DNA of 64,000 nt from Candidatus Binatia bacterium (GTDB taxonomy: Bacteria > Desulfobacterota > Binatia > Bin18). A program made the position numbers and the translations under genes. The notes beneath the pieces are model-generated. The model searched no databases and was not told where the DNA came from. It saw only the letters and a list, made by a program, of their open reading frames with translations. The stretch's first letter is position 1. Each line of letters opens with the position of its first letter. Of this stretch, positions 6,577-49,398 are shown piece after piece. Location: the NCBI GenBank assembly GCA_963664395.2, contig OY761159.2:4256001-4320000 (forward strand), given 5' to 3'.

Positions 6577-6589
6577 GGAGCATGTAGGC

Positions 6590-7660
6590 ATGGATCTTTC
6601 GACTTTTGATGTTGCGCTACGAGTGATTATTGTCTTTGGGTTGATTATTTTTGTGCACGAGCTGGGGCACTTCCTGGCCGCCAAATGGGTCGGTGTTGGG
6701 GTCGAGCGGTTCTCGCTCGGATTTGGTCCGAAACTCATTGGCCGCCAGGTCGGCGAAACTGAGTATTTACTCAGCGCAATTCCTCTGGGTGGCTATGTGA
6801 AGATGGTTGGAGAGGAAGTCGGCGAGGAGGTGAATGAGGCTGATCTGTCTCGCTCCTTCACCCATAAATCGTTGCCGAAACGCTTTCTGATTGTCTTTGC
6901 CGGTCCATTTGCCAACTTTCTGATGGCTTTTGTTGTCTTTAGTCTGGCCTTTGCCCAATTTGGCATCAATGTTCCGATTGACCAGCCCAGAGTTGGTGGC
7001 GTAGTGGCGAACATGCCGGCGGAAGCGGCAGGTTTGGAGCGGGAGGACGAGATCCTCAAAGTCGATGGGACTGAAGTCCACACCTGGGAAGAACTGGCTG
7101 AGCAGATCCAGCACAGCAATGGGAATGAAATTCAATTGGTCATTAAAAAGACGAACGGCGGCCAGGTTCTTGCAACAACGGTAACCCCCCAACTGCGTGA
7201 CAACCCCGTCAGCGGACAAGTCTACGTGATTGGTATTGAGCGGGCCTTTACGACCGAGCCTGTTGCGGTGGGGCGGGCGATGGCACTCGGCGCTGAGCAA
7301 ACCTGGTTGTGGACACAACTCATTTTAGACAGCGTGGTAAAGCTTGTGAGTGGAGAGGTTTCAACCAAAGAACTGGGCGGTCCCATTCTCATTGCGCAGG
7401 TGGCTGGCCAGCAGGCGCGTTTGGGACTGGATTATTTACTGCGCTTCACGGCCATCATTAACGTCAACTTGGCAGTCTTTAATCTTCTGCCTATTCCGGT
7501 CCTCGACGGTGGCCATCTGTTGCTTATGTTCATTGAACTCCTCATTGGTCGCCCGTTGAGTAATCGTTCCAAAGAAATGGCGCTGCGCGTAGGCTTTCTG
7601 GTCATCGTCTCGCTCATCGTCTTGGTCTTCTACAACGATATTTCGCGACTTGTCAGCTGA
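6590..7660 (+). CDS. rseP: RIP metalloprotease RseP
   Basis: HELGH, PDZ region, FNLLPIPVLDGGH; ATG 6590 after GAGGAG. Confidence 0.95.
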   Translation: MDLSTFDVALRVIIVFGLIIFVHELGHFLAAKWVGVGVERFSLGFGPKLIGRQVGETEYLLSAIPLGGYVKMVGEEVGEEVNEADLSRSFTHKSLPKRFLIVFAGPFANFLMAFVVFSLAFAQFGINVPIDQPRVGGVVANMPAEAAGLEREDEILKVDGTEVHTWEELAEQIQHSNGNEIQLVIKKTNGGQVLATTVTPQLRDNPVSGQVYVIGIERAFTTEPVAVGRAMALGAEQTWLWTQLILDSVVKLVSGEVSTKELGGPILIAQVAGQQARLGLDYLLRFTAIINVNLAVFNLLPIPVLDGGHLLLMFIELLIGRPLSNRSKEMALRVGFLVIVSLIVLVFYNDISRLVS

Positions 7661-7668
7661 TATCCGCC

Positions 7669-8379
7669 ATGCTCGTTCTCGGCATTGACACTGCTACTCC
7701 GATTGCGAGTGTCGGCCTGATACATGACGGCAGTGTGCTGGCAGAACAATCACGCGCCGCTGCCACGAGTCATGCGGAAAATCTGTTGCCGTTGATTCAG
7801 CACGTTCTCGACCAGTCACAGGTCAGCTTGCCTGAGATCGACGGTATGGGGGTTACGATAGGCCCTGGAGCCTTCTCTGGTCTGCGCATCGCACTCGGCA
7901 CGATAAAAGGCTTTGCCTATGCCCTCTCTCAACGGGTTGCCGGAGTCTCGACGCTCCTGACGCTTGCCCATGCAGTGACAGAGTGGACAGGCAGATTGTG
8001 TGTTGTGCTGGATGCTCGCAAGCGTGCAGTGTATGCCGCTTTCTTTGCGCGTGACGCAGGAGGGCAAATTACCCGCCTGACTGAAGATATGGTCCTCTCT
8101 CCCGAAGAGTTGGTCACCCAAGTCTTTGCTCCATTAGAAACTATTGGCCTCTTCGTTGGGGATGGCGTTGAGCGCTACGGTGCAATAATCCGAGAAAACT
8201 GCAGGCCGAATACAGAGTTTATTCCGCTCACTGCTGTCCCGCCCCGCGGCAGCATTGTCGCCCGCTTAGCTTGGGTGCGGTTCAAGCAGGGAGACCACGA
8301 CGACATATCGCAACTCGTTCCGCATTATATCCGCCGCTCCGATGCGGAGCGCAACCGGCTGAAACAGCGTTCAGAATAG
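7669..8379 (+). CDS. tsaB: tRNA t6A biosynthesis protein TsaB
   Basis: LGIDTAT, GPGAFSGLRI, LDARK. Confidence 0.92.
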   Translation: MLVLGIDTATPIASVGLIHDGSVLAEQSRAAATSHAENLLPLIQHVLDQSQVSLPEIDGMGVTIGPGAFSGLRIALGTIKGFAYALSQRVAGVSTLLTLAHAVTEWTGRLCVVLDARKRAVYAAFFARDAGGQITRLTEDMVLSPEELVTQVFAPLETIGLFVGDGVERYGAIIRENCRPNTEFIPLTAVPPRGSIVARLAWVRFKQGDHDDISQLVPHYIRRSDAERNRLKQRSE

Positions 8380-8567
8380 TCGGGCCTACGAAAAAGAACT
8401 ATACTGCTAGGTCAACAAAAGCGAGTCTTTCAGCGATCTTATGGCCTAGACAGGTTGTGTGAATTTTGGCATCCTGCCCCAGAATCTTGCTGAACAAGCA
8501 ATATCTCAGCGGATTGAGATGAGGACAGACGGACGGACTGTCCTCTTTTTCTATTCACGGATGCTAG

Positions 8568-9533
<966 letters not shown>

Positions 9534-9567
9534 TCACACCAACGGGCAAAAGTAGGGTAAGGGTGTT

Positions 9568-10731
9568 ATGAACATTCACGAATACCAAGCAAAAGAGATA
9601 CTGCGGAAAAATGGGGTGGCCGTGTTGGACGGCAAGGTTGCCACAACCCCGGACGAGGCCGAAGCCGCTGCCAAGGAACTGGGCGGTGGGGTCTGTGTCG
9701 TCAAAGCCCAGATTCACGCCGGTGGGCGTGGCAAAGCCGGTGGCGTTAGGCTGGCCAAGACGCCGCAGGAAGCACGCGAACACGCCGCGGCTCTGCTTGG
9801 CACAACCCTGGTGACACACCAAACTGGGCCCGAGGGCAAGGAAGTCCAAAAGGTCTTTGTTGAGCAGGGCTGTGATATTGATAAAGAGTTCTATCTGGGC
9901 ATGGTCATTGACCGTACGACCTCGCGGATTACGGTTATGGCCAGTTCCGAGGGGGGCGTGGAGATCGAGGAAGTGGCCGAGCGCTCGCCCGAGAAGATTC
10001 TCCGCGCCACAATTGATCCCGCGATTGGCTTCGGGGATTTCCAAGGCCGCCAGCTTGCCTACGGCCTGGGTCTGCCCAAAGACTCGGTCAACAAAGCCGT
10101 GGCGTTTATGCGCGGTTTATACAAGACATTTTCCGAGAGTGATGCCTCCATGGCTGAGATTAATCCGCTGGTGCTCACGAAATCCGGCGATCTTGTCGCC
10201 TTGGATGCCAAGATGGGTTTTGATGACAACGCGCTGTTCCGTCAGGCCGATATTCGCGAGATGCGGGATGTGGCTGAGGAAAACGAGAAAGAAGTCGCTG
10301 CCTCCAAGTTTGACCTCAATTATATTGCCCTGGATGGCAATATTGGCTGCATGGTCAATGGGGCTGGGCTGGCGATGGCGACCATGGACATCATTAAACA
10401 CTACGGGGCTGCGCCCGCGAACTTTCTGGATGTGGGTGGCGGTGCGACCACTGAGAAGGTGACTGAGGCGTTTAAAATTATTCTGTCAGACGAGAATGTC
10501 AAAGGTGTCCTGGTCAATATTTTTGGCGGTATTATGCGTTGCGATGTGGTGGCCAATGGTGTGGTTGAAGCCGCCCGGCAAGTGAATCTGTCGGTCCCGT
10601 TGGTCGTTCGCCTGGAGGGCACGAATGTTGAACTGGGGAAAACGATTCTGGCTGAGTCCGGGCTTGATATTATTTCTGCCGACGATTTAGCCGACGGCGC
10701 GAAGAAGATCGTCGAGGCGATTCGTGCGTAG
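9568..10731 (+). CDS. sucC: Succinyl-CoA synthetase beta subunit
   Basis: [38 protein letters not shown]. Confidence 0.98.
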
Positions 10732-33910: not shown

Positions 33911-35539
33911 ATGCACGGTAAACGCGGGCTCATATCCGTAGTCTGTCGCGTCCTCGGCGGGCTGTTACTCCTGGCGATCTCGGCCAATGTTTCGCCCTGT
34001 TACGGCTATTTCATGGACAAACAGGTTGATAAGGTCGTGAATACATGGTCACGCTTTGATCGCTTTCTGTCTACCTTTGATCCGGCGGGCCGGTACGTCC
34101 GACAGCCCGTAGAACGTCAGATCCCGGCCCTGACGTTTCGGGGGTTTCTCCGCCAATGGTCTGACGTCCAACTCTCAGGCGACCGCCGTGTCGGCAATCG
34201 GCGAAAAGACTTCCGTTTTTCCCAGATGCAGAATTTGCTGGAATTGGAACTCCACTACCAAGTCTCACCCAATATCGAAATAACCAATATCAATAACTTC
34301 ATATACGACGGTGTGTACAACTGGCAGGATTCTGCCGGTCTGTTTGCCTCCCGGACGAGCGAAACTTTCCGCGCCTATCATAACTTTGAACGCATCGTGC
34401 GCGAGCTGTATGTCAGCTATCGCACCCACAACCTGGATGTGGTTTTGGGCAAGCAGCAGATTGCCTGGGGTAAAATGGACGGCCAGTTCATTGATGTCAT
34501 CAACGGCATGGACAGGCGTGAGTCCGTCCAGCTTGAGTCGAGTGACTACGAGTGGCGCCGGCTGCCGGTCTGGATGGCGAATACGACCTATTTCTTTGGG
34601 GCAAACTCTCTCAACTTCCTGTGGATTCCGAACTTTGAGCAAGACCGCAATCCGGTCCCCGGCTCACCGTGGTATTCGCCCCTGGCTCCGCCCAGGGATA
34701 CGGAGACGAAAGCGCTCCTGGACGGCCGCCAAGACGCGACCGGGGATCAGTTCAGGGAGACGAAGCGGCCGTCTGCGGGCGACTTCGGCGACCATCAATA
34801 CGGCCTGCGGCTTGATGTTTCCATGGAACCGCTCACCTGGGGTCTCATTTATTATTACGCCTGGAATAAAAACCCGACGTCCTTCATTGTCGACCGCGAT
34901 ATCGATGCTGCCGGGGACCCCCATCTGACCTTTCAGCCGCGTTTTACCCGCATGCATCATCTCGGCATCACTGCCGACTATGCTTCCGCGCTCTCGAATA
35001 TGCCGCTTGTCGGCGAACTGCCCATGGTGCTGCGGGTTGAGGGTTTGTGGACCAAAGACGTTCCCTTCGCCGACTTTGACCATCAGCAGGCGGCGCGGGA
35101 CGGGAGTCTCAACTCGGGCATCATTCGGCGCGATACCCTGCGGGCCGCGATTGCGCTGGAGTTCGCCTTTCCCGGCAATACCTCTGCGATTATACAACCC
35201 TCACTCTTGTATACCTTTGACTGGCGTCGCAATCTCGGCGGGGGCTTTGGCGGAGGGATCGGAGATGAAATGAGCCTCCTGCCGGTCTTCTTTGTTGGGC
35301 GCCCGTTTCGCTTCACCCGTGACCGTTTGCGCCTGGAGTTGACCGTCGTTCCCGTTATCAGTCTGCCGCAGAAGAAATGGCAGGGCATCAAAACGAAATT
35401 TGTTTCGAGCTATCGCTTTTCCCAATTTGTTACCGGTCGCCTTATTTATACGGCGTTCAGTAGCGGTGATCGGACTGACCTGTACGGACAATATAACAAA
35501 TGGGACAATATCGGCTGGGAACTGAGTTACGAGTTCTAA
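33911..35539 (+). CDS. Outer-membrane beta-barrel protein, DUF1302-like
   Basis: Signal peptide, RELYV, LGKQQIAWGKMDG, C-terminal LSYEF; adjacent to DUF1329. Confidence 0.72.
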   Translation: MHGKRGLISVVCRVLGGLLLLAISANVSPCYGYFMDKQVDKVVNTWSRFDRFLSTFDPAGRYVRQPVERQIPALTFRGFLRQWSDVQLSGDRRVGNRRKDFRFSQMQNLLELELHYQVSPNIEITNINNFIYDGVYNWQDSAGLFASRTSETFRAYHNFERIVRELYVSYRTHNLDVVLGKQQIAWGKMDGQFIDVINGMDRRESVQLESSDYEWRRLPVWMANTTYFFGANSLNFLWIPNFEQDRNPVPGSPWYSPLAPPRDTETKALLDGRQDATGDQFRETKRPSAGDFGDHQYGLRLDVSMEPLTWGLIYYYAWNKNPTSFIVDRDIDAAGDPHLTFQPRFTRMHHLGITADYASALSNMPLVGELPMVLRVEGLWTKDVPFADFDHQQAARDGSLNSGIIRRDTLRAAIALEFAFPGNTSAIIQPSLLYTFDWRRNLGGGFGGGIGDEMSLLPVFFVGRPFRFTRDRLRLELTVVPVISLPQKKWQGIKTKFVSSYRFSQFVTGRLIYTAFSSGDRTDLYGQYNKWDNIGWELSYEF

Positions 35540-35578
35540 CCGACCTGCGTGAAAGAGCTCTCACCGGACGATCATCTT

Positions 35579-36937
35579 ATGCATAGACGCTTTTTTTTCC
35601 TGACGGTATGGGTCTTTTCTTTTCTCTCCAGCCTGGCGATAGCGATTGCTGGGGCTGCTGAGCAGAACGGCAGCCACCGGCAGACCTGGAAAACGGTAGC
35701 GGAGCTGTCCGAGGCGGAAAAGTCGCGTCTTGATTTCCGGGTCGATACCCCCCGAGATACGACGGTTCCATACCTCCCGGCCGAAGCCTATCCCTTTCAG
35801 CCGCCTTATACCGCGGAAGAGATGGGCTATCGGGCCATGGAATTCCCGCACATCGCCCGCTGGTCGCATGCTATGGCCGATGTGTTCGGCGCCATTACCG
35901 GCAACGGCTTTCTGGATGAAGGCATCACGCTGGGCTATAGCTATTATATCCCGGACGAAGATGGGGTGCCCGGTCAGCTCAGCATGACACCTGGGGAGGC
36001 CTATTTTCGGATGGTCTTCTTTTATACCTATCCGCCTGAGAATCAGGGCCTGCAGGACCTCTGGATCCTGAGACGGACAGACAAAGAGGAAACGACCAAA
36101 CTCGACAATTTTATCTATAGCCCAACATTGCGCCGCGTGCGTCGCCAGCCCCAACCCCGCCGTGATGCCCAATTCCCGAATAACGTCCAGACCTTTGACG
36201 ATGTGGTGGGGCGCGATGCCTGGGAGTTCTCCTGGCGGCTGCTTGGCACGGATGTGCTGCATGAGACCGTTCGTTTCCCAAATACCCGTCCGACAGTCAC
36301 CCTGGCCAAGCCCGACGGGAGTTTTAATGAGATCCCATCCGATCATATTAAAATGCTGGGCGACACGTATCCGCATTATACTGAAGACGGTGGAGTGGCC
36401 TGTTATGTGGTTGAGGCGACCAGACGAAAAGACTGGCTGCCCCACTATCGCATGGGCCGGCTCATCTATTGGCTCGATAAGCACAGTTTTTATCCGTTGC
36501 GAATTGAGCAGTATGACAATGACAACCAACTTCGGGTGATCGAGGTACGCAACGCCTATCTGGTCAATCCGGCACTGGAAGAACGTGGTTATGCCGGACT
36601 GTTCACCGTGTACTATGACATTGCTTTAGACCTGATGAGCTATAGCGCACATGATGCCCATTGGGTGAAGGAGTGGTCCCAAGAAGACCAGGATACGATG
36701 TTTGAGCCTGATTTTATGCGCCGCAATTGGCTCAAGTATCCGCTCAAATCCCAATCTCTGGTCTATTCTCCGGAAAAATTCTTTCTCCGCCCGCTCTTGT
36801 ATCCGGATAAATTCCCGCAGGACCGGAGCGTTGCCATCTCCGCAGAGCTGGAGCAGCGCTATCGTTTGCAGGAAGAAGCCGGACATCTAGTCTTCGACAT
36901 CTCCTCTCCGCTCATTGAGGTCAAAGCGCAACAGTAA
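35579..36937 (+). CDS. DUF1329-like (LolA-like) periplasmic protein, copy 1
   Basis: Signal peptide; YSPTLRRVRR motif; FDDVVGRD. Confidence 0.72.
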   Translation: MHRRFFFLTVWVFSFLSSLAIAIAGAAEQNGSHRQTWKTVAELSEAEKSRLDFRVDTPRDTTVPYLPAEAYPFQPPYTAEEMGYRAMEFPHIARWSHAMADVFGAITGNGFLDEGITLGYSYYIPDEDGVPGQLSMTPGEAYFRMVFFYTYPPENQGLQDLWILRRTDKEETTKLDNFIYSPTLRRVRRQPQPRRDAQFPNNVQTFDDVVGRDAWEFSWRLLGTDVLHETVRFPNTRPTVTLAKPDGSFNEIPSDHIKMLGDTYPHYTEDGGVACYVVEATRRKDWLPHYRMGRLIYWLDKHSFYPLRIEQYDNDNQLRVIEVRNAYLVNPALEERGYAGLFTVYYDIALDLMSYSAHDAHWVKEWSQEDQDTMFEPDFMRRNWLKYPLKSQSLVYSPEKFFLRPLLYPDKFPQDRSVAISAELEQRYRLQEEAGHLVFDISSPLIEVKAQQ

Positions 36938-36938
36938 G

Positions 36939-38282
36939 ATGGCTCTTCACGCGCAACAGCTCTTGTGGCTGCTTGTCTGCTGCCTGCTGTGTTCCGGCAG
37001 TCTGGGGGCCGCGACCGTGGCGGCAGACCAAGACGGTCTGACGCCGCAGAAAACCTGGACAACGGCTGCCGAGCTCACGGCCGAAGAAAAAGGAGTGCTG
37101 GATTTCCGTACGGACACGCCGCGAGATGCCAGCGTGCCCTATCTGCCGGCCGAGTCCTTCCCGTTTCAGCCGCCCTATACGGCGGAAGAAATGGCGCTGC
37201 GAGCCATGGAGTTCCCCCACTCGCCGTTCTGGGACTGCATCCTGATCGACATGGCGTTCTCGGTGACGAATTCAGGATTTATGGACCAACGCGTGACGCT
37301 TATTCCCATTCTGTATTTTCCTGAGAACGGCTTTGGAGAACATCTGTACGCGGCGCAGCCCGGCCAGGAAATCTATCGCTGGCTCTCCCAAAGCGTCTCT
37401 CCACCCGAACGGTACGGGAATCAGACCTTATGGATAGGCTATCGGACAGATAAGACCTTCCGGACGAAAATAGACATGTTCGCCTATTCTCCATCGCTGC
37501 GGCGAATCCGTCGTCAGCCGCAACCGCGGCGGGAAGACCGTTTACCAAACAGTGCCGCAACCTTCGATAATCTGATCGGACGCGATGCCTGGGAGTTCTC
37601 GTGGCGCATTCTCGGGACGGATGTTTTGCATCAGACGGTGCGTTTCCCCAAGACGCGCCAAACCGCGGTGCTGACCGACGAGAAAGGGCAGTACGTTGAA
37701 GTTGACGCCAAAGATCTCTCCCTCATGGGCAAAGAATACCCGCTCTATACCGCCGATGGTGGAGTCAAATGCTATGTGCTCGAAGCCATACCAAAATCCG
37801 ACTGGCTGCGTGACTACTATGCCCATAGGCTTATTTACTGGGTTGACCAATATGCGTTCTTTCCCTTGCGGATGGAAGAATATGACCGACAGGAGAATCT
37901 GAGTTTTGTGAACACCCGGATTGCGAGCCTTGCCAACCCGGCTCTTCAGGAACACGGCTACGCGGTTCAGTTTGACCTGTGGTGGGACGTGTCTATTGAC
38001 TTCCTGTCCGCCTCGACCCACGGTTTTGTCCCCCAGACCTGGTCAGCGGCAGACAAAAAGATATTCTTCAGCTCCGGATTCATGCGCCGCGAGTGGTTCC
38101 TTGTGCCGCCCAAGGGCCTGATGAGTCTCAACTCGCCGGACGAATTCTACCTGCGGCCCCCGCTCGAAGAGGGGAAATTCCCGGACTCGCGCTCTATCAG
38201 TTTGTCCCCTGGTCTACGGGCTCTGATTGAGGCCCAAGAGCGCGAGGGTAAGCTGGTGTTTGAGGAGGGAAGGGACGGCTAA
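36939..38282 (+). CDS. DUF1329-like periplasmic protein, copy 2
   Basis: Paralog of copy 1 (TPRD..VPYLPAE..PFQPPYTAEEM; YSPSLRRIRRQPQPRRED). Confidence 0.72.
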   Translation: MALHAQQLLWLLVCCLLCSGSLGAATVAADQDGLTPQKTWTTAAELTAEEKGVLDFRTDTPRDASVPYLPAESFPFQPPYTAEEMALRAMEFPHSPFWDCILIDMAFSVTNSGFMDQRVTLIPILYFPENGFGEHLYAAQPGQEIYRWLSQSVSPPERYGNQTLWIGYRTDKTFRTKIDMFAYSPSLRRIRRQPQPRREDRLPNSAATFDNLIGRDAWEFSWRILGTDVLHQTVRFPKTRQTAVLTDEKGQYVEVDAKDLSLMGKEYPLYTADGGVKCYVLEAIPKSDWLRDYYAHRLIYWVDQYAFFPLRMEEYDRQENLSFVNTRIASLANPALQEHGYAVQFDLWWDVSIDFLSASTHGFVPQTWSAADKKIFFSSGFMRREWFLVPPKGLMSLNSPDEFYLRPPLEEGKFPDSRSISLSPGLRALIEAQEREGKLVFEEGRDG

Positions 38283-38340: not shown

Positions 38341-39456
38341 TTACTCCGTCGTGTGTGTATCTTGCCAGGCGCGGCCCATCGAGTCCGCGGCCAGAATGGC
38401 GTCGGCAACCATGTCAGGCTGCACGGCAAACGGTTCGTTATGGATGGTTTCTCCTTCCGCGGTCGCCCGCGTGGCCACTTGTTCAAGCAGGTCTTCCGGG
38501 AATTCGCTGAGCCCGATCTCGGCCAGGGTGATAGGCAGGCCGACCGCTGATGAAAACTCCAGAACCGGATCGATAACCGAGCGTGGCTGACCTTCGAGCA
38601 CTAATTGAGCCATCAGGCCGTAGGCGACTTTTTCCCCATGATAGTACGGATGGGTGAGCGGGGCTGCGGTGAGGCCATTATGGATGGCATGGGCTGCGGC
38701 AAGCCCTGAGGACTCGAAGCCCAGACCCGACAGCAGGGTGTTGGCTTCGACAAGCCGCTCCAGGGCTGGATTGACAACGTGACGTTCCACGGCCCGTTTC
38801 GCATCCGGACCGTCTTCAACCAGGATGTTGTAGCACAGCTCCGCCAGCTTTTCGGCGCTGCGCGTTGAGGCTCCCCCACGCATATTCTGGACATGACCGG
38901 CAACACAGGTTTTGGCCTCGAACCACGTGGCCAGCGCATCTCCCATCCCTGCCACCAGCAGCCTGGCCGGAGCTTGGGCGACAACATAGGTGTCCACCAC
39001 AACCAAATCCGGGTTCTTCCGATAAAAGCGATATTCCTGGAATACCCCTTCGGGAGTATAAATCACCGACAGCGCGCTGCACGGCGCATCACTTGAGGCA
39101 ATGCTTGGACAGTTGACGACAGGCAGATCAAGGTCGTCGGCGGCGGCCCGGGCCGCATCCAATACCTTCCCGCCGCCCGCTCCGATAATGACCTGAGCCT
39201 TATTCGCCCGCGCCGTTTCTTTGATACGTTCGATTTCAGGGTAGGAGCACTCCCCCCCGAACTGATGGACGACGTGGGTGATGCCGGCATCGTTCAAATG
39301 TTTCTGCCAGACTTCCGAGAGCAGCCGAATGGCACTTTTCCCGGCAACAATACAGGCCGGTCCCTGCAAGCCAATACGCTGCATTTCCGTTCCTAAGGCG
39401 GCAGTGGCGTGCTTCCCTTGTACGTAGTGGCTGGGGGCTGAAAAAACCGAGAGCAT
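38341..39456 (-). CDS. gldA: Glycerol dehydrogenase (GldA-family NAD-dependent diol dehydrogenase)
   Basis: GGECS, GGGKVLD, ASSDAPCSALSVIY, GDALATWFE, HAIHNG, HGEKVA. Confidence 0.9.
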   Translation of the reverse strand: MLSVFSAPSHYVQGKHATAALGTEMQRIGLQGPACIVAGKSAIRLLSEVWQKHLNDAGITHVVHQFGGECSYPEIERIKETARANKAQVIIGAGGGKVLDAARAAADDLDLPVVNCPSIASSDAPCSALSVIYTPEGVFQEYRFYRKNPDLVVVDTYVVAQAPARLLVAGMGDALATWFEAKTCVAGHVQNMRGGASTRSAEKLAELCYNILVEDGPDAKRAVERHVVNPALERLVEANTLLSGLGFESSGLAAAHAIHNGLTAAPLTHPYYHGEKVAYGLMAQLVLEGQPRSVIDPVLEFSSAVGLPITLAEIGLSEFPEDLLEQVATRATAEGETIHNEPFAVQPDMVADAILAADSMGRAWQDTHTTE

Positions 39457-39582
39457 ATGTCCCTCCTTACCGATTGCTATTCCCTCAGATAGAGCAGGCA
39501 GTATAAACTGAGACGGGTTGACGCGGCAAGCAGGAGAGGGCCATTGGGACAAGAGGAGAGACGTTACTGTCGCCCCATATTG

Positions 39583-40528: not shown

Positions 40529-41101
40529 ATGCGACGAGCCTGCCGAATCTTCCTTCTCATATCCGCAGTGGCGACGCTCTGCCTGGCTCTTCCTGTGTCA
40601 TCCTGGGCGCACCGGGATAGAGGGCCGGGAGACCTGTGCCGCCGAGAGGTCGGTGCTTCACTCTTGCATATTACGTTCTATCAGACCCAATTTGACCCGG
40701 TCACAGAATATTGTGAAGAAATTCCGCGGGTGGGCAATGCTTTCCTGGTCGTGGACGTGACTCCGGATCTATGGGAAATGCCGTTCGGCGTCCAACTCGT
40801 TGCCTCAGATGAATCTGGACAGTCGAGTACGATACTGTCGCTGCCTTCACAAGTGTATGAACGTGGCGTGGCCAACGCTGAAGTCTTTGTGAAGGCCGGC
40901 ATGAGCTATGAAGTGCGTGTCGCGCTTGGACTTGAAGGTGAACCAGAACCGCGTAAATTTTTATTTCCCTTTCAGGTTGCAGCATGGTACAAGGCTATGG
41001 TCGGGCCAGCGCTGATTGTGATCGGAGTCGTTATCGTCATTGCGATATCGGTAATCCGTTATCAGATCACCTCTCGGAGCAGAGAAGCGCTGGTGGAATA
41101 A
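40529..41101 (+). CDS. PmoD/AmoD-like periplasmic copper protein, copy 1
   Basis: SSWA|H signal cleavage; C-x9-H-ITFYQ...EYCEEIP..G pattern; C-terminal TM helix. Confidence 0.78.
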   Translation: MRRACRIFLLISAVATLCLALPVSSWAHRDRGPGDLCRREVGASLLHITFYQTQFDPVTEYCEEIPRVGNAFLVVDVTPDLWEMPFGVQLVASDESGQSSTILSLPSQVYERGVANAEVFVKAGMSYEVRVALGLEGEPEPRKFLFPFQVAAWYKAMVGPALIVIGVVIVIAISVIRYQITSRSREALVE

Positions 41102-41151: not shown

Positions 41152-42000
41152 ATGGCTCAGGCGCAAGCAGTACAAAACGTACCGAAAGGTTCTGGCGATG
41201 GTTCTCTGACAAGTGGCAGCTCAGTCAACCCGACTGATTGGTCAGTCGGGTGGCATCCTCTATTCTGGGGGTGTGGGCTTATTATGCTTGCCAACGTCTT
41301 TTTCTGGTGTTGGAACTATGCCTTTATGTTCACGGCCGGACTGAACTCAGCGAGTGCTGAATTCACGCTGTATTACCGGACGCTGTTCTGGGGCGAACTA
41401 ATTGTCTTAGGCGTGTTTAGTGGCGTGTGGTTTGGCTGGCTCATGCGGAATGGCCGGGCCGTTGAGGGACAAGAATGCTCACCCGCCGAGGAGACGCGTC
41501 GCATCGCGATTTTGTGGAGCCTGATTGGCGCGACGAGTCTGGCAATCTATATGGAAGCCAGCTTCTGGCCGAACTGGGACGGCTCGTGGCACCAGACCAT
41601 GGTGCGTGACACCGCGCTCACACCGACCCACATCCCGATGTTCTACTTTTTCTTCCCGCTCTCCGTCGTGTTAGCAGTTGGCACCTACGTCTACGGGCGA
41701 TTCCACATTCCGGCGCTGTACGGCAAGGATAAAGGCTTTCCCTGGTCGTTCTTTTTGCTGATCAGTGCCTGTGTGCTCGAATGCATGGCCGTTGCCGCCA
41801 ATGAGTGGGGCCATAGCCTGTGGATCTCCGAAGAGATTTTCTCCGTTCCGTTTCACTGGCCGTTTGTGATTTATGGCTGGCTTGCCGCCGGCATGTTTGC
41901 GGTGTGGGGTGAAACCCTGGTGCGCATGTTCGAGGTCGAGAAGGCCGAAGAGGCTGCTCATCCGGAATCTTCACTCGAGTCGCCGCTAGCTGCTGATTAA
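41152..42000 (+). CDS. xmoC: Copper membrane monooxygenase subunit C (PmoC/AmoC homolog)
   Basis: ASFWPNWDGSWHQTMVRDTALTPTH and NEWGHSLWISEEIFSVPFHW match the PmoC CuC/CuD motifs. Confidence 0.95.
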   Translation: MAQAQAVQNVPKGSGDGSLTSGSSVNPTDWSVGWHPLFWGCGLIMLANVFFWCWNYAFMFTAGLNSASAEFTLYYRTLFWGELIVLGVFSGVWFGWLMRNGRAVEGQECSPAEETRRIAILWSLIGATSLAIYMEASFWPNWDGSWHQTMVRDTALTPTHIPMFYFFFPLSVVLAVGTYVYGRFHIPALYGKDKGFPWSFFLLISACVLECMAVAANEWGHSLWISEEIFSVPFHWPFVIYGWLAAGMFAVWGETLVRMFEVEKAEEAAHPESSLESPLAAD

Positions 42001-42062
42001 TAATCGGCTCAGGTTTGGCTCGATAAACGTATCGACAATCCTCGTGCAGAGAGGAAGTGCGC

Positions 42063-42866
42063 ATGGCGGCAGACACCACAACCGTAACGGACATCACCGG
42101 TGCAGCCGAACGGCAACGTCGGCTCGAACTCAAGGAGCTGCTGAACAAGAAATACAAGTGGCTTGGTTGGAAGTGGGATCTTGTCTTCTGGACGACGGCT
42201 ATTTTCGTAGTTGCCGGTGCCGCTGACATCACCAAGCAGCTGTTTGCCGGTGACTGGGATCACTGGACGGATTGGAAAGATCAGCAGTGGTGGCCGGTGA
42301 TCACGGCTTTTGCCACGATTATCATTCCGTCGGCGCTCCAGTACATTCAGTGGGCAGCTTGGCGATTCCCGACTGGCGCGACCTACACCGCCTGCTGTCT
42401 CTTTCTGGCTGCCTGGGCCGGGCGTTATTTCCAGTGGGACTTGGCGGCCAACTATCCGCTGAATTTCGTGTGGCCGGCCTCCGTCGTCTGCGCTGGAATC
42501 CTGATGGACTGGACCTTAATGAAGACCAAGAGTTTTATCCTCACCTCGTTAATCGGTGCCCATGTCTGGGCGATCGCGGTGTGGGCCTATAATTACGTCC
42601 CCTTAGCCGCCTTTCTCCAGCCGGCCTATTTCATGGACCATGTGGTGACGGTTGCCGACGTCCAGGGCATTGCCTATATCCGCTCCCAGACGCCGGAATA
42701 CCTCCGGCTTATTGAGCGGGGTGCGTTGCGGAGTTTCCTGGGCGAGACGCAATACGTTTCCCTGGCCTTTGGGGGAACGGCGGCCTTTGTTGGCTACTGG
42801 ATCGGTCAGTTTATTGGCCGTTATCTGGCGGTATGGCCTATTCGGCGTTATCTGAAGATCGTGTGA
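42063..42866 (+). CDS. xmoA: Copper membrane monooxygenase subunit A (PmoA/AmoA homolog), divergent
   Basis: GDWDHWTDWKDQQWWP, RFPTGAT, YPLNFVWP, ADVQG..YIRSQTPEYLRLIERGALRSF. Confidence 0.95.
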   Translation: MAADTTTVTDITGAAERQRRLELKELLNKKYKWLGWKWDLVFWTTAIFVVAGAADITKQLFAGDWDHWTDWKDQQWWPVITAFATIIIPSALQYIQWAAWRFPTGATYTACCLFLAAWAGRYFQWDLAANYPLNFVWPASVVCAGILMDWTLMKTKSFILTSLIGAHVWAIAVWAYNYVPLAAFLQPAYFMDHVVTVADVQGIAYIRSQTPEYLRLIERGALRSFLGETQYVSLAFGGTAAFVGYWIGQFIGRYLAVWPIRRYLKIV

Positions 42867-42867
42867 G

Positions 42868-43227
42868 ATGAATATTATGTGCGGCATGTCTTTCAAACGT
42901 CAGCAATCTGCCCGGTATGTCAGCGTCTTCTCTTTCTTCATCGCGCTGCTTGCCGGTGTGTCTCTCTATCCTTCCCTCGCGCATGCCCACGGTATGAACG
43001 CCGCTGAAATGGCCCCGCCTATTATTACCGCGGGCATACTGGCGTTCGTCTGCTACTGGCTCGTGGTTTTGTGGCCGGCATCGAAAGGTGCCGAAACCGG
43101 CCTGCAGTGGCCGCCGGAAACGGACCGGGCTATTCGCATCAAACGCAAGCCTCGCTTACGGGTCATAGAAACGAAGCCTCAGCTCCCGGACGAACAGCCT
43201 GAGAGCAGGCAGGTGGCCGATGGCTAA
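42868..43227 (+). CDS. Small membrane protein inserted between xmoA and xmoB (start uncertain)
   Basis: Hydrophobic leader ending AHA|HGM, second TM helix, basic tail; stop overlaps xmoB start by 8 nt. Confidence 0.65.
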   Translation: MNIMCGMSFKRQQSARYVSVFSFFIALLAGVSLYPSLAHAHGMNAAEMAPPIITAGILAFVCYWLVVLWPASKGAETGLQWPPETDRAIRIKRKPRLRVIETKPQLPDEQPESRQVADG

Positions 43228-44479
43228 GCGGTTCGTGATCGGTAGTGTCGGCGTGTTAGGCGTCATCCTGGCCGTTGTCGTCGCCAAGACGCCCAGCGCC
43301 TTTGCCCATGGTGAGGCTGCCGACGAACCGTTCTTGAAAAACATGACTACGGCTTTCTTCAACGTCAGCGTTTCGCCGACCGAAATCGAGGTGGGAGAGC
43401 CGGTCAAGGTGACGGGCTCGGTCAAAATCCTCGAGACCTGGCCGCATACGCTGGAGACCCCGGAAATCGCTTCCATCATGCCGGTCGTCCCCGGGCCGGT
43501 CTTTGTACTCAGGGAGCGTTTTGTCAACGGAACGGCCGCCATCGGCTCGTTTTTCGCCCAAAAGGGGGACATTTACGAGTTTGAAATGGAGCTGGTTGGC
43601 AAAGAGCCAGGGGACTGGCATGTGCATCCCGGTATCGCCATCTATGGGACCGGTACCCTGATTGGGCCTGGCGAATGGGTTAAAGTCAAACCAAGTGCTG
43701 AACCCTTCTCATTCCCGCTCACACTGATGTCTGGTGAGACGATTGAACTCGGTACGTATGGAGGATCATTCGTCTGGTGGTGGTCGTTTGCCGGATTTGT
43801 CTTGGGGGTTATCTGGATACTGTACTGGACGACGAATAAAAGAACGGTGACCAATCTCGCAGTCACTGTCCAGCTGCCAGTGAATGACGATGCCCCCGAT
43901 ATTGGCCTCATCACGCCGCGTGACCATATGTGGATGAATGTTATCGTTGGCGTGACCCTGGTTATGCTGGTTGTCGGTTGGACGTATGCCACATCAAATG
44001 CGCCAGTTCGCTGGCCGCAGCAAACGGACTGGTTTACTCCGGAATTCATTTCTTCTGGTGAGAAAATTGTTGAGGCCCGGGCCAGCGGGGCGACGTATGA
44101 CGAAGCGAGTGAAACGCTTGAGATGAAGGTCCAAGTGACGAATGTTGTTGAGAGCGACATCGAACTCAAGCAACTGACTATAGCGATGGCGACCTTCGTG
44201 AACGGACCGGAAGCCGAACAGGCGAAAGCCGGTCCGAGTGATTTTGTTGGTCGGCTCGAAGTCCAGCCGGACGGGCCGATTGCTCCGGGCGAAAATAAAG
44301 AGCTGACCCTGACTATTTCAAGTAGTATTTTCAGCGAAGAGCGTCTCATCCCGACGCAAGCACCGCAGCAGTTTATTGGCGCAGTCTTACGCTTTGAGAA
44401 TGGGAACGACGGTCATGAGTTAGTGACGGTCCGTTCAAACGTCGTCCCCACTCAGTTCCGTTCTACCTATCTGCCATAA
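43220..44479 (+). CDS. xmoB: Copper membrane monooxygenase subunit B (PmoB/AmoB homolog)
   Basis: AFA|HGE mature N-terminal His, PGPVF, PGDWHVH (CuB), two central TM helices, second cupredoxin domain PIAPGENK. Confidence 0.95.
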   Translation: MAKRFVIGSVGVLGVILAVVVAKTPSAFAHGEAADEPFLKNMTTAFFNVSVSPTEIEVGEPVKVTGSVKILETWPHTLETPEIASIMPVVPGPVFVLRERFVNGTAAIGSFFAQKGDIYEFEMELVGKEPGDWHVHPGIAIYGTGTLIGPGEWVKVKPSAEPFSFPLTLMSGETIELGTYGGSFVWWWSFAGFVLGVIWILYWTTNKRTVTNLAVTVQLPVNDDAPDIGLITPRDHMWMNVIVGVTLVMLVVGWTYATSNAPVRWPQQTDWFTPEFISSGEKIVEARASGATYDEASETLEMKVQVTNVVESDIELKQLTIAMATFVNGPEAEQAKAGPSDFVGRLEVQPDGPIAPGENKELTLTISSSIFSEERLIPTQAPQQFIGAVLRFENGNDGHELVTVRSNVVPTQFRSTYLP

Positions 44480-44520: not shown

Positions 44521-45093
44521 TTGGACAGCGTTGTGAAACTCTTCTCCCTTGTTGCCATGCTCCTCGTCCCAACGGGAGCATGGGGACATGGGGGTGTCGC
44601 CATGGATATGGACCCCTGCATAGAGCGGGCCGGCGCCTATCTGATCCATTTTTCTGCCTACCAGCCGCAAGAGTACGCAACCGAAGAATTCTGTCGGAGC
44701 GTTCCTCTGACCGGGAGTACGATTCTCGTTTTTGATCTGATTGATCCCGAATTGCGCAAGAAATCAGCTGCGGTGCGCATTATTAAGGAAACCAATACTG
44801 CTGAACCTCGACTGTTGCTCGATATCCCGGCACGGGTGTATCCCAGCGGCGTGGTGAATGCTGAAGTCCATTTTGACACACCTGGCCAGTATACGGCCCT
44901 GATGACGCTTGACGGGGTTGATGGGTCTGTGCGGTTTCCCATTCGAGTCGCTTCACTCTCAAATACCATGCTGGTCCTGATCGCGGGCCTGATCATCGGC
45001 TGCGGCGCTGGCTATTATGTCGTCGGTGGCAAACTCGGTTGGCCACCGTTTTCGGTGAAAAAGGTTCCGTCACTCACATTGGTCAAGGGATAG
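44521..45093 (+). CDS. PmoD/AmoD-like periplasmic copper protein, copy 2
   Basis: AWG|HGGVAM; C-x9-H-FSAYQP...EEFC..P..G...VFDLIDPELR; C-terminal TM. Confidence 0.82.
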   Translation: MDSVVKLFSLVAMLLVPTGAWGHGGVAMDMDPCIERAGAYLIHFSAYQPQEYATEEFCRSVPLTGSTILVFDLIDPELRKKSAAVRIIKETNTAEPRLLLDIPARVYPSGVVNAEVHFDTPGQYTALMTLDGVDGSVRFPIRVASLSNTMLVLIAGLIIGCGAGYYVVGGKLGWPPFSVKKVPSLTLVKG

Positions 45094-45151: not shown

Positions 45152-46846
45152 ATGTGGCTGCGTGGTCTTCTCTTTTTCTGCCTTCTTCTGAGTGTACTCG
45201 CTATCGGTACGCTTTTTCTGCTTCCTCGTGCCTGGCTCCCCCGCCCGATACAAGACTTTGCGTATCAATATATCGGCGAAGAGTCCTACCAAAAGCCGCC
45301 TCCCAGTCGCGAAATAAGCCCTGTCAGTGTGGAGCCATTTTGTCTGGACAGACACCCAGACTGGCGGAAACCTCAGACTATTGAGGGCGTTGCCGTGGAA
45401 GCATCACCGGTTTGTGATCCAGATAATCCAGCCGACATTGCGGCCTTTGTCAAAGGGACGAATAATATTGCTCTGCACACGCTCATGGAGACGCGGCTCA
45501 CGCCCAATACGGTGGTGAAGGAGAACGACCGAGACGGGGATGGCGACCCGGATGAGATTCACATCCGACTTGAAGTCATAGAATTGAACGGACACTCACC
45601 GGATGACCCCGCCCCATTCCCCGCCTATTTCATTGCGCCTGGCGTACAGCCCGGGCTGTGGGTTTTTGCTCCAAAATCACGCGGCATGGCGACGGAGAAT
45701 TTTGAAAGTGAACAGGCGCACCCGACCTTGAGAGCCCCGTCTCCGGTGATTCGTATAGAGCAGGGTGATACGCTCCGGGTGACCTTGGAGAATACACACT
45801 ATCTGCCGCATACCATTCACTTCCATGGGGTTGACCATCCCTTTGTTGACGCCGCCGGCGAGGGAAACGACGGTGTTCCCATTGTGAGTGAAATGCCAGT
45901 CACACCAGGGGAGAGTCGCACCTATGAGATGACCCCGCGTCAAACGGGCACGATGTTTTACCACTGCCACGTCCAACCTCATGTCCATATTCTGATGGGA
46001 CTCCAGGGCATGTTTGTTGTTGAAGAGAACCGGCCGAATAACTGGCTCCAAACGCTCAATATTGGAGCCGGTCGGGTGCGCGCTGTCTCTGCGGCAGTCA
46101 GAGAGTCGTATGATCGGGAATTCGACCTGCACTACCAAGACATCGACCCGGCGTTGAATAACATTATTCAGACCGCGACGGATCCCAGATTAATCGCCGA
46201 AGCGACGAATCGGGGTTATGACATTACGGATCAAGAACCTGACTATTTCTTACTAAACGGACGGTCATTTCCCTATACGACCCGCGAGTCGCTTGTTGTT
46301 GTTGCCCCAAATGAACGGGTCAAACTGCGTGTCCTCAACGGCGGAGCGGAAGGAATCTCTCTGCATACGCATGGGCATAAAGTCAAAATCACGCATTATG
46401 ACGGCGTCGAACATAATCCGGCTGCTCAAATCACCCGCGATGTGGTATGGCTGAGCCCCGCCCAACGGGTAGATCTTCTCCTCAATACAACTGATGACGG
46501 ACTGCATAATTATGGGCAAGGCATCTGGCTGCTCCACGACCATAAGGAAAAGGCCATCACAACTGATGGGATCAACCCTGGTGGCAATATCAGTGCCATT
46601 GTCTATCAGGATTACTTGGACGCATCCGGTCAGCCGAAAACGCAGGGGATGGATTGGGCGCCGTTTTTCACCAAGGAGTATTATCAAAAAAAGCTTCCCA
46701 TCTGGGCTGGCCTGGAGGACTTTAACCTTTTTGGAGAGGCGGGTACTCGTTCCCTGCCCTTGAGTTCCGCACTCATACTCGGGATAGGTATCGGCTTCCT
46801 CATCGGCGCGGCTTGTGCCTTTGGGCGATTTACCCGACGCCGATGA
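45152..46846 (+). CDS. Membrane-anchored two-domain multicopper oxidase (T1 site in domain 1)
   Basis: HTIHFHG; YHCHVQPHVHILMG; LHTHGH; LHDH (no Cys); TM helices at both termini. Confidence 0.85.
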   Translation: MWLRGLLFFCLLLSVLAIGTLFLLPRAWLPRPIQDFAYQYIGEESYQKPPPSREISPVSVEPFCLDRHPDWRKPQTIEGVAVEASPVCDPDNPADIAAFVKGTNNIALHTLMETRLTPNTVVKENDRDGDGDPDEIHIRLEVIELNGHSPDDPAPFPAYFIAPGVQPGLWVFAPKSRGMATENFESEQAHPTLRAPSPVIRIEQGDTLRVTLENTHYLPHTIHFHGVDHPFVDAAGEGNDGVPIVSEMPVTPGESRTYEMTPRQTGTMFYHCHVQPHVHILMGLQGMFVVEENRPNNWLQTLNIGAGRVRAVSAAVRESYDREFDLHYQDIDPALNNIIQTATDPRLIAEATNRGYDITDQEPDYFLLNGRSFPYTTRESLVVVAPNERVKLRVLNGGAEGISLHTHGHKVKITHYDGVEHNPAAQITRDVVWLSPAQRVDLLLNTTDDGLHNYGQGIWLLHDHKEKAITTDGINPGGNISAIVYQDYLDASGQPKTQGMDWAPFFTKEYYQKKLPIWAGLEDFNLFGEAGTRSLPLSSALILGIGIGFLIGAACAFGRFTRRR

Positions 46847-47580: not shown

Positions 47581-47610
47581 GAGTTCGGGGCGTCATATGC
47601 CCTCTTTCTC

Positions 47611-47639
47611 TTGACCTCCAGTCTAAAAATAAGTAGGGT
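47611..47639 (+). promoter_or_regulatory. sigma70-type promoter upstream of the PQQ dehydrogenase
   Basis: TTGACC-17 nt-TAGGGT. Confidence 0.5.
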
Positions 47640-47685
47640 TCGACCACATTTTTCGATTGTCAATTACTCCGAGGAGGCATTATCC

Positions 47686-49398
47686 ATGCGAGGTTACTGG
47701 TTGTCGATATTTTTACAGGTGGCAGTCTCTCTCATGCTTCTCTCTCCAACCGCACTTTACGCTGACGCGCCTGCCAAGAACGCTGACGCGCTTCAGCCGG
47801 TTACGCACGAGCGTTTGGTCAAAGGAACGGCCAACTACGCTGACTGGCTGATGTACGGTGGGAATTATGAAGGCTGGCGATTTAGTCCCCTAACGGATAT
47901 TGACCGCCAGAATGTCAAAAAACTCCAGGCCGCCTGGATTTTTCAAACCGGGGTGCCAGCCCAAATGCAAGCCTCACCCGTGGTTGCCGATGGCGTGATG
48001 TATCTTACCGCGGCCTACAACAAGCTCTTTGCTTTAGACGCCGTAACTGGCAAACCGCTCTGGAAATATGACCATGATCTGCCGGACGATCTGCGGATTT
48101 GCTGCGGACCGGGCAACCGGGGAGCTGCGCTGGCTGGGGATAAGGTCATTATGGCCACGCTGGATGCGCGTATTGTCGCACTCAACAGGAAAACCGGTGC
48201 AGTCGTGTGGAATACCCAAGCCGACGACTATGCCGACGGCTTCAGCTTTACCCTGTCACCACTGATTGTTCGAGACAACGTCATTGTTGGTATTGCGGGC
48301 GGTGAATACGGTATTCGCGGCTATATTGATGCCTATGATCTTAAGACCGGAAAACGCAAATGGCGTCGTTATACGGTGCCTGACGAAGGCGAGCCTGGTG
48401 CCGAGACCTGGGCTGGTGATTCGTATAAACAAGGCGGCGGACCGGCTTGGGTGACTGGCTCGTATGATGCGGATCTTGACCTGGTTTATTGGGCAACGGG
48501 TAATCCGGCCCCGGACTGGAACGGGGATGGACGTGAGGGTGATAATCTCTACACCAACTCGGTGTTAGCTCTTGAGCCTGATAGCGGTGAGATCAAATGG
48601 TACTTCCAATTCACCCCGCACGACGTCTGGGACTATGATGGCAACACGGGGATATTTCTGCTCGACGTGATGCGCAGTGGCCAGTCTGTCAAAGCCTTAG
48701 CCCAGCCCAATCGGAACGGATATATGTATGTCCTTAATCGTGGGGATGGAAAGTTCCTGCACGGCTCCCAATACGTTGAGCAGCTCAACTGGGCGAAAGG
48801 GCTGGACGAAAATGGCCGGCCGCTTATTGACCCCAAGTATGTTCCCATGGAGGGAGGCAATCCTGAATTAATCTGTCCCGGGAATGCGGGGGGACAAAAC
48901 GGATCGTATGCTGCGGCCTACAGCCCGCTTGCCAATCTCATCTTTGTCCCGACGATTGAGAGTTGCGGAAAAATGGAAAAGGCCAAATCTATTTTCATCA
49001 AAGGCATCCCATTCTGGGGCGGGGGGCCTGGACAAACGCAGGGCGACCTCGGCACAGCATACGGTCACGTCACGGCCATAGACCCCACCAGGGGTGAAGT
49101 GAAGTGGCGCTATAAGGACGAGTGGCCGATGGTTGGTGGGGCACTCGCTACAGCCGGGGGACTCGTATTTACCGGCAACCAAAAGGGATTCGCTCTTGCC
49201 TTGGATGACGCGACGGGTGCGGTCTTGTGGAGGTTCCAAACTGGCTCGGCTGTTCGGGGACAACCGATTACATACAAAGTTGGTGGTAAACAATATGTTG
49301 CTGTTCCCAGTGGCGCCGGGGGGTTGGTCGTGGATATCGTCGGTAAATATCCCCAAACAACACCGGGTAGCTCTGTTGTGGTATTTGCGCTCCCGTGA
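47686..49398 (+). CDS. PQQ-dependent alcohol dehydrogenase, predicted lanthanide-dependent
   Basis: Signal peptide; RICCG vicinal Cys; GGEYG; GNPAP; TPHDVWDYDG carries the extra Ln-binding Asp. Confidence 0.92.
   Translation: MRGYWLSIFLQVAVSLMLLSPTALYADAPAKNADALQPVTHERLVKGTANYADWLMYGGNYEGWRFSPLTDIDRQNVKKLQAAWIFQTGVPAQMQASPVVADGVMYLTAAYNKLFALDAVTGKPLWKYDHDLPDDLRICCGPGNRGAALAGDKVIMATLDARIVALNRKTGAVVWNTQADDYADGFSFTLSPLIVRDNVIVGIAGGEYGIRGYIDAYDLKTGKRKWRRYTVPDEGEPGAETWAGDSYKQGGGPAWVTGSYDADLDLVYWATGNPAPDWNGDGREGDNLYTNSVLALEPDSGEIKWYFQFTPHDVWDYDGNTGIFLLDVMRSGQSVKALAQPNRNGYMYVLNRGDGKFLHGSQYVEQLNWAKGLDENGRPLIDPKYVPMEGGNPELICPGNAGGQNGSYAAAYSPLANLIFVPTIESCGKMEKAKSIFIKGIPFWGGGPGQTQGDLGTAYGHVTAIDPTRGEVKWRYKDEWPMVGGALATAGGLVFTGNQKGFALALDDATGAVLWRFQTGSAVRGQPITYKVGGKQYVAVPSGAGGLVVDIVGKYPQTTPGSSVVVFALP

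Follow-up and report, generated by a model that had tools for sequence, protein, structure and literature searches.

We have shown that a gene for a pyrroloquinoline quinone (PQQ)-dependent alcohol dehydrogenase, lanthanide-type by its ligand residues, stands in a copper membrane monooxygenase (CuMMO) cluster of Candidatus Binatia bacterium. The DNA analysed, a stretch of 64 kb (hereafter the window), corresponds to C1:4256001-4320000 of a 5.04-Mb genome assembly that is 96% complete (genome G000, contig C1). From the family of the enzyme, its ligand residues, and the context, distribution and presence in RNA libraries of its gene we infer, with just over even confidence, that a lanthanide-type dehydrogenase was recruited to this cluster, that it oxidises the alcohol made by the CuMMO, and that the electrons pass to a cytochrome c encoded elsewhere in the genome. 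A lanthanide-type alcohol dehydrogenase is thereby physically tied to a putatively hydrocarbon-type CuMMO in an uncultured, globally distributed phylum. This tie predicts that alkane (or methane) oxidation in these bacteria needs both copper and rare earths, and the two enzymes form a concrete pair for expression and testing.

The dehydrogenase and its metal site

The open reading frame (ORF) of the dehydrogenase extends from an ATG at 47686 to a stop at 49398, with GAGGAGG located 7-13 nt upstream. Translated straight from the DNA, it gives FTPHDVWDYDGNTG, which contains the motif WDYDG. The hydrophobic N-terminal leader, MRGYWLSIFLQVAVSLMLLSPTALYA, was recognised by reading the sequence, and export to the periplasm is predicted. 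The protein scored 593.9 bits against TIGR03075 (PQQ-dependent dehydrogenase, methanol/ethanol family), above the curated cut-off of 480.05 bits, and 298 bits against the Pfam PQQ model PF01011. It has no CxxCH motif and hence no fused haem domain.

The enzyme was placed among the named enzymes (PedH, ExaF, XoxF and MxaF) by bit scores against the sequences of solved structures. The best solved relative was PedH (6zcv and 6zcw; 413 bits, over residues 37-549, and 411 bits), followed by the alcohol dehydrogenase ADH IIB (337 bits), XoxF (333-334), ExaA (330) and MxaF (293). These lower scores, together with the lack of adjacent xoxJ/xoxG or mxa genes, place the protein outside XoxF and MxaF proper, and no adjacent cytochrome c gene of the kind that would mark a ped/exa-type operon was found in the window.

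Residue-by-residue alignments revealed a complete set of lanthanide ligands (E207, N273, D316 and D318). E207 (in GGEYG) and N273 (in TGNPAP) align with their counterparts in PedH and XoxF. At the position of the extra Asp, PedH reads WDFDG and XoxF WDYDG, and the type II quinohaemoprotein ADH IIB (1kv9), which we take to be a calcium enzyme, reads WDFTA. Work on XoxF, ExaF and PedH has made this extra Asp a predictor of lanthanide dependence. The vicinal pair C139-C140 (in RICCGPGN) aligns with the Cys-Cys of PedH, XoxF and ADH IIB. Each of the 19 full-length orthologues and of the 24 Binatia-type paralogues examined carries the extended motif HD[VI]WDYDG; distant relatives (L061-L069; 33-45% identity) do not have it. 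Judged by its ligand residues, the enzyme is therefore a lanthanide-type, PedH/ExaF-like dehydrogenase and a new member of that group. A first-pass annotation of this DNA, made by eye, had read the extra Asp as a lanthanide signature and had kept the protein apart from XoxF and MxaF proper, and the alignments and scores given above bear it out on both points.

It is very improbable that the enzyme uses calcium, or is metal-promiscuous, in spite of its extra Asp. The title of PMC10409515 does report broad metal selectivity of a PedE-type enzyme; against this, all four lanthanide-type ligand positions are occupied, the XoxF and a paralogue encoded in the same genome share the WDYDG motif, and none of the five PQQ-dehydrogenase paralogues of the genome inspected carries the MxaF-type Ala at the position of the extra Asp.

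Linkage with the CuMMO and transcription

The genes of the cluster lie on one strand in the order PmoD-family gene, xmoCAxB, another PmoD gene, two-domain multicopper oxidase, cupredoxin, dehydrogenase. The order from xmoCAxB to the dehydrogenase was found at each of the 17 orthologue loci of genus g1 that had 10 kb of upstream flank, although at one of them (L022) an insertion of ~3.6 kb (6389-10001) separates the cupredoxin from the dehydrogenase. In the three genomes of genus g256 the orthologue (75-79% identity) lies across the cluster from the cupredoxin, upstream of the gene of an iron-containing alcohol dehydrogenase (Fe-ADH). At these three loci a luciferase-like gene directly follows the cupredoxin, and neither a cytochrome nor a cupredoxin gene stands beside the dehydrogenase gene.

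A class-wide search detected CuMMO genes in 90 of 401 genomes (including one unpublished genome, G595), and 20 window-type CuMMO loci from other genera were compared. Three of them (L078, L080 and L081) have the oxidase and the cupredoxin, and the orthologous dehydrogenase is not at the locus; in the genomes of L078 and L081 the best dehydrogenase is just 67% identical and is encoded on another contig. At L079 and at the 13 loci of family f5 the CuMMO stands by itself.

The dehydrogenase gene may well be transcribed from a promoter of its own, for which the first-pass annotation had named a candidate. A terminator-like hairpin just past the cupredoxin stop codon is followed by a TTGACC-17 nt-TAGGGT element. 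Both of its hexamers are unchanged at all 10 loci aligned while the flanks diverge, which makes a separate promoter plausible. The element falls short of the consensus threshold of the scan tool. All four metatranscriptome libraries searched (two studies) yielded contigs that cover xmoCAB as well as the dehydrogenase, with an identity of 95-99% or better, and one RNA contig (47535-48168) crosses the hairpin and the intergenic region. Two contigs, from two runs of one study, have their first positions at 47645 and 47649; this hints only faintly at where transcription starts, in material that cannot establish transcript starts or levels. The depths of these contigs (17-80 for xmoCAB, 0-7 for the oxidase and cupredoxin, 2-17 for the dehydrogenase) give no basis for ranking expression.

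These data also bear on a simpler view of the gene, namely that it encodes a general alcohol/aldehyde scavenger, whose adjacency to the CuMMO in two genera is a rearrangement devoid of functional meaning. The promoter-like element of its own, with a hairpin before it, the different position of the gene in the two genera, and the same-type CuMMO clusters that have no such dehydrogenase (13 of 13 in family f5, and L078-L081) would all be expected of a scavenger, and PedH-type enzymes accept a broad range of substrates. Even so, rearrangement has left the gene no further than ~10 kb from xmoCAB in either genus, with the cytoplasmic Fe-ADH alongside, and the RNA-library contigs span xmoCAB and the dehydrogenase alike in the same four runs. 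We therefore regard a scavenging role without connection to the CuMMO as distinctly unlikely.

Origin of the dehydrogenase and the cytochromes of the genome

The genome holds five further PQQ-propeller loci. The XoxF gene (C1:1312984-1314801; motif WDYDGVNE) is followed by a single gene for a 427-aa XoxJ-XoxG fusion (C1:1311659-1312942, minus strand), which scored 308 bits against TIGR03871 and carries a cytochrome c domain. A close paralogue of the window dehydrogenase (C1:2976149-2977969; 65-70% identity) also carries WDYDG. On its 3' side lie the genes of a binding protein resembling XoxJ, of a class I cytochrome c of 139 aa and of a beta-propeller protein of the TIGR03866 type, and pqqABCDE, which the first-pass annotation had proposed to look for elsewhere in the genome, is present ~10 kb away. 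This paralogue occurs in 19 of the 20 assemblies that have the orthologue of the window dehydrogenase.

The 139-aa cytochrome (C1:2978906-2979325; L015:3907-4326) is PedF/XoxG-like (PF13442, 35 bits; cytochrome cL 2c8s, E 0.007). Haem would be bound by CSGYCH, a CX3CH motif in place of CXXCH, and a cytochrome with C[AS]GYCH is encoded at 22 of the 24 paralogue loci. Both a whole-genome PF13442 search and a CxxCH regular expression overlooked this protein, and such searches are therefore incomplete. The PedF model TIGR04494 had no match above its cut-off anywhere in the genome. Within the window, only one ORF of at least 50 aa contains CxxCH (an antisense ORF at 7816-8121), and when the ORFs between 36000 and 58000 were rescanned with the wider haem pattern C-x(2-4)-CH none matched. 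The window has no xoxG, xoxJ or pedF-like gene, and the cluster no SBP_bac_3 gene, so that the earlier impression of a dehydrogenase without a nearby cytochrome partner was correct. A crude search of the genome for lanmodulin-like proteins (at least three EF-hand loops) found none, a result that carries too little weight to speak for their absence.

A quick maximum-likelihood tree of the dehydrogenases (58 rows) placed the sequences of g1 and g256 in a CuMMO-linked clade (23 rows; Shimodaira-Hasegawa-like approximate likelihood ratio test, SH-aLRT, 98), beside a cytochrome-linked clade (22 rows; SH-aLRT 96). The two clades and two small lineages, one of which likewise has the XoxJ-like protein and the cytochrome, fall within a 48-row Binatia-type clade (SH-aLRT 99), in which some records are labelled otherwise.

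Two other groups of genes were noted among the PQQ-related loci. Four tandem genes of ~650 aa each (C1:1035151-1042350) encode proteins with a cytochrome c domain and a partial match to the PQQ-like beta-propeller. In another PQQ dehydrogenase (C1:825324-827713) WDWDE replaces WDYDG, and its gene directly follows those of a Rieske [2Fe-2S] protein and a luciferase-like monooxygenase.

The cupredoxin and its copper module

The gene immediately upstream of the dehydrogenase encodes a blue-copper protein, as the first-pass annotation had recognised. It consists of an N-terminal helix, a His-rich stretch, the cupredoxin domain and a C-terminal helix. The residues H127/H132, C171, H176 and M181 are invariant in all 50 aligned homologues. 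In Foldseek searches the predicted model (pLDDT, the predicted local distance difference test score, 76.9) matched auracyanin (1qhq/2aan; template modelling (TM) score 0.63-0.64) and AcoP (7z3f; TM 0.65). By its ligands and predicted fold this is a type-1 (blue) copper site. The family is large (3459 clusters at E <= 0.001) and is ~50-60% identical across Binatia, methanotroph-like contigs and Nitrosococcus halophilus, whose member ADE13852.1 shows 62% identity; it appears to be uncharacterised.

We inspected the neighbourhoods of the cupredoxin at 80 metagenome loci (L095-L174). A recurrent order was observed: a PmoD-like gene, an optional oxidase gene, the cupredoxin, a VTT/DedA-like protein and a 252-aa protein of unknown function, the last two following the cupredoxin outside Binatia. 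Several of these contigs are methanotroph-like, and one carries a canonical pmoBA pair 5 kb away. A PmoD-like gene lies upstream of the cupredoxin at 38 of 52 loci and an oxidase gene directly upstream at 28 of 45; a dehydrogenase gene directly downstream was seen at only 1 of the 46 loci whose sequence continues for 2 kb or more on that side. The cupredoxin and the dehydrogenase thus do not show conserved co-occurrence across lineages. These counts and the distribution of the family tie the cupredoxin to PmoD, the oxidase and CuMMO users and not to the dehydrogenase and, judged by gene neighbourhood, it belongs primarily to a PmoD/multicopper-oxidase copper module that accompanies CuMMOs.

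Its position downstream of a PmoD homologue makes the cupredoxin a candidate CuMMO accessory, and its family and the CX3CH cytochrome are leads that may prove weightier than the dehydrogenase gene itself.

In the cupredoxin of genus g256 (L075:8826-9689) the His-rich N-terminal stretch has grown into tandem HADHRMDAEP repeats, which suggests a variable metal-capturing tail.

The electron acceptor

In the sequence of events that we favour, a periplasmic lanthanide-type dehydrogenase would have originated by paralogy from a canonical operon with genes for dehydrogenase, XoxJ-like protein, cytochrome c and beta-propeller protein. A CuMMO cluster of the hydrocarbon type would have acquired it, leaving the accessory genes behind. 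Apparently transcribed from a conserved promoter that belongs to it alone, the enzyme would convert the primary alcohol that the CuMMO releases into the periplasm to the aldehyde. The electrons would go to a c-type cytochrome encoded elsewhere. Taken by itself, this choice of acceptor falls a little short of an even chance, with the 139-aa CX3CH cytochrome of the paralogue as first candidate and the XoxG domain as second.

A survey of fusion partners was based on the 150 nearest 50%-identity representatives of the dehydrogenase in the whole protein universe, 58 of which are at least 650 aa long. The CxxCH motif was found in 43 of these 58, and so in at least 43 of the nearest 150; a Pfam cytochrome c domain was confirmed in 32 of the 49 long representatives scanned.

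Several observations weigh against the proposed course of events. The cytochrome of the paralogue is encoded 1.33 Mb from the window dehydrogenase. Every dehydrogenase of the CuMMO-linked clade sits in a cluster that also holds the cupredoxin, an arrangement that a change of acceptor to copper would explain just as well. Among the 150 nearest representatives, four (P0245, P0214, P0253 and P0211; 38-43% identical to the window enzyme) have a C-terminal cupredoxin domain of the Cupredoxin_1, Copper-bind or SoxE type. One of them, P0245, combines WDYDG with a CDVGTHRFQGM copper motif and a terminal membrane helix, and its copper domain weakly matches the cupredoxin family of the window (E ~1e-5 in a 150-sequence database). 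The 17 loci of genus g1 are not independent, because they come from close relatives and the whole region is syntenic. The ancestral state, cytochrome-linked or CuMMO-linked, is one that we infer, the forks between the groups being open in the quick tree. Finally, the probable assignment of the CuMMO to the hydrocarbon/alkane type rests by analogy on PMC8262859, in the part of that paper available to us. As for the fusions, with 43 haem-motif proteins set against 4 with a cupredoxin domain, haem is thus the usual partner here, and copper partners exist.

The main alternative is that the membrane-tethered cupredoxin is the physiological acceptor, replacing cytochrome c and passing electrons to the multicopper oxidase, to a terminal oxidase or to the CuMMO. 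The genes of the two stand side by side in genus g1, the sequences of both proteins indicate a periplasmic location, and the CuMMO-linked clade has lost the neighbouring genes for the XoxJ-like protein, the cytochrome and the propeller, which the sister clade retains. The intact type-1 ligand set, a fold like that of the respiratory carriers auracyanin and AcoP, and the four fusions point in the same direction, and azurin is given as the natural acceptor of a type II PQQ alcohol dehydrogenase in the available part of the review PMC8348568. A cupredoxin dedicated to this role would, however, hardly be expected in methanotroph-like contigs and Nitrosococcus halophilus, or with a dehydrogenase downstream at so few metagenome loci; in genus g256 the dehydrogenase gene is 8-9 kb away, across the cluster, cytochrome fusions outnumber the copper fusions, and the variable His-rich, Met-rich N-terminal stretch would fit copper handling too. 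In the literature searched we met no cupredoxin acceptor of lanthanide-dependent PQQ dehydrogenases. We consider this alternative rather unlikely, and the weight that remains beyond cytochrome c and the cupredoxin falls to other carriers.

The first-pass annotation had proposed a Cu/lanthanide pathway in which electrons derived from the alcohol pass through the cupredoxin. As stated, this finds no support, since the cupredoxin travels with PmoD and the oxidase, often without an adjacent dehydrogenase. A dedicated cytochrome encoded elsewhere, named by the same annotation as an argument against its pathway, was nearly found: a cytochrome c is encoded beside the 65-70% identical paralogue, while the cupredoxin fusions of distant relatives keep the idea of a copper acceptor alive. 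The boldest version would be a haem-free copper/lanthanide chain in the periplasm, leading from the dehydrogenase to the cupredoxin and from there to the CuMMO (directly or via PmoD), or to the two-domain oxidase acting as a periplasmic oxygen reductase. We hold such a chain to be quite improbable. If it were true, alcohol oxidation would pay for the next alkane hydroxylation (in the version that returns electrons to the CuMMO), and the PmoD-oxidase-cupredoxin module, widespread as it is, would turn out to be the long-sought way in which electrons enter copper membrane monooxygenases.

Gene content of the cluster

The features of the cluster are listed in Table 1. The CuMMO subunits score far under the AmoABC and PmoABC equivalog cut-offs, and the small membrane ORF between subunits A and B (the "x" of CAxB) is kept in related loci at 29-73% identity. 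Both 190-aa neighbours of the CuMMO genes belong to the PmoD family: their Cys and His residues align with those of 6cpd, and the two match each other at 31-38% identity (tblastn). The best solved relatives of the multicopper oxidase are the two-domain laccase 2zwn and the Nitrosomonas europaea oxidase 3g5w.

Table 1. Annotated features of the CuMMO cluster (positions in the window)
Feature	Position	Strand	Basis
Iron-containing (cytoplasmic) alcohol dehydrogenase, cluster edge	38341..39552	-	PF00465, 96 bits; syntenic in genera g1 and g256
Second PmoD-family protein, paralogue of that at 44521-45093	40529..41101	+	Cx9H...C motif
CuMMO subunit C	41152..42000	+	PF04896, 144 bits
CuMMO subunit A	42057..42866	+	PF02461, 179 bits
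Small membrane ORF between subunits A and B	42868..43227	+	ORF list
CuMMO subunit B	43220..44479	+	PF04744, 236 bits
PmoD homologue, Cx9HxnC motif	44521..45093	+	PmoD 6cpd, E 6e-11; motif class according to the available part of PMC6189053
Membrane-anchored two-domain multicopper oxidase	45152..46846	+	Pfam Cu-oxidase_3, Cu-oxidase_2, Cu-oxidase
Membrane-tethered type-1 cupredoxin (by ligands and predicted fold), 240 aa	46858..47580	+	Invariant ligands; Foldseek matches
Terminator-like hairpin with T-rich tail, just past the cupredoxin stop	47587..47603	+	1 found, 0.4 expected in shuffles
Promoter-like element: TTGACC (47611-47616), 17 nt, TAGGGT (47634-47639)	47611..47639	+	Conservation
Type I PQQ alcohol dehydrogenase, PedH/ExaF-like, 570 aa, with signal peptide	47686..49398	+	TIGR03075; PedH match
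WDYDG: catalytic Asp316 and extra, lanthanide-type Asp318	48628..48642	+	Translation; alignments to PedH, XoxF and ADH IIB

Upstream of the cluster, at 33911-38282, lie genes for a DUF1302 outer-membrane protein and two DUF1329/LolA-like proteins, which may form an uptake system for hydrophobic substrates.

The genome also encodes a second CuMMO operon (C1:2386400-2389366, minus strand) of CAB order, 32-33% identical to that of the window. It scored 331 bits against the PmoB Pfam model (236 bits for subunit B of the window), and no dehydrogenase, oxidase or cupredoxin gene lies close by.

Comparison with known systems

The CAxB order and an alkane-type (Actinobacteria/SAR324) CuMMO clade have been described for Binatota (Murphy et al. 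2021, PMC8262859), together with XoxF, XoxG/XoxJ and PQQ synthesis. The window shares with this account the phylum and the gene order; the downstream oxidase, the cupredoxin and the PedH-like dehydrogenase are not mentioned in the part of it consulted. The 190-aa neighbours are homologous to PmoD/AmoD of methane and ammonia oxidisers (6cpd; Fisher et al. 2018, PMC6189053). That study, as far as it was available, reports PmoD classes near multicopper oxidase genes and a Cx9HxnC class that binds copper without forming a CuA site, and it makes no mention there of the conserved downstream cupredoxin found here.

The cupredoxin has its fold, its His/Cys/His/Met site and its tether in common with auracyanin and AcoP, which are respiratory and membrane-tethered. 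It is just 14-20% identical to them, and adds the His-rich stretch near its N terminus and a second pair of Cys residues (C76 and C112), which is conserved. For electron transfer from a PQQ alcohol dehydrogenase to a blue copper protein, ADH IIB (1kv9) with azurin offers a precedent, according to the accessible portion of PMC8348568; that enzyme has a fused haem domain and WDFTA, without the extra Asp, whereas the window enzyme has no haem domain.

XoxF, with XoxG and XoxJ, belongs to the same superfamily and shares the DYD motif with the window enzyme. It differs in having ACCDVVNR at the Cys pair, where the window enzyme has RICCGPGN, and in a score lower than that of PedH; the XoxF of this genome forms a long separate branch in the tree. 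The closest parallel is PedH of Pseudomonas putida KT2440 and ExaF, periplasmic type I enzymes without haem, with which the window dehydrogenase shares the Glu, the Asn, the Asp, the extra Asp and the Cys-Cys pair. It is set apart from them by the lack of an adjacent pedF-type cytochrome gene, by its place in the Binatia-type clade and by its location in a CuMMO cluster.

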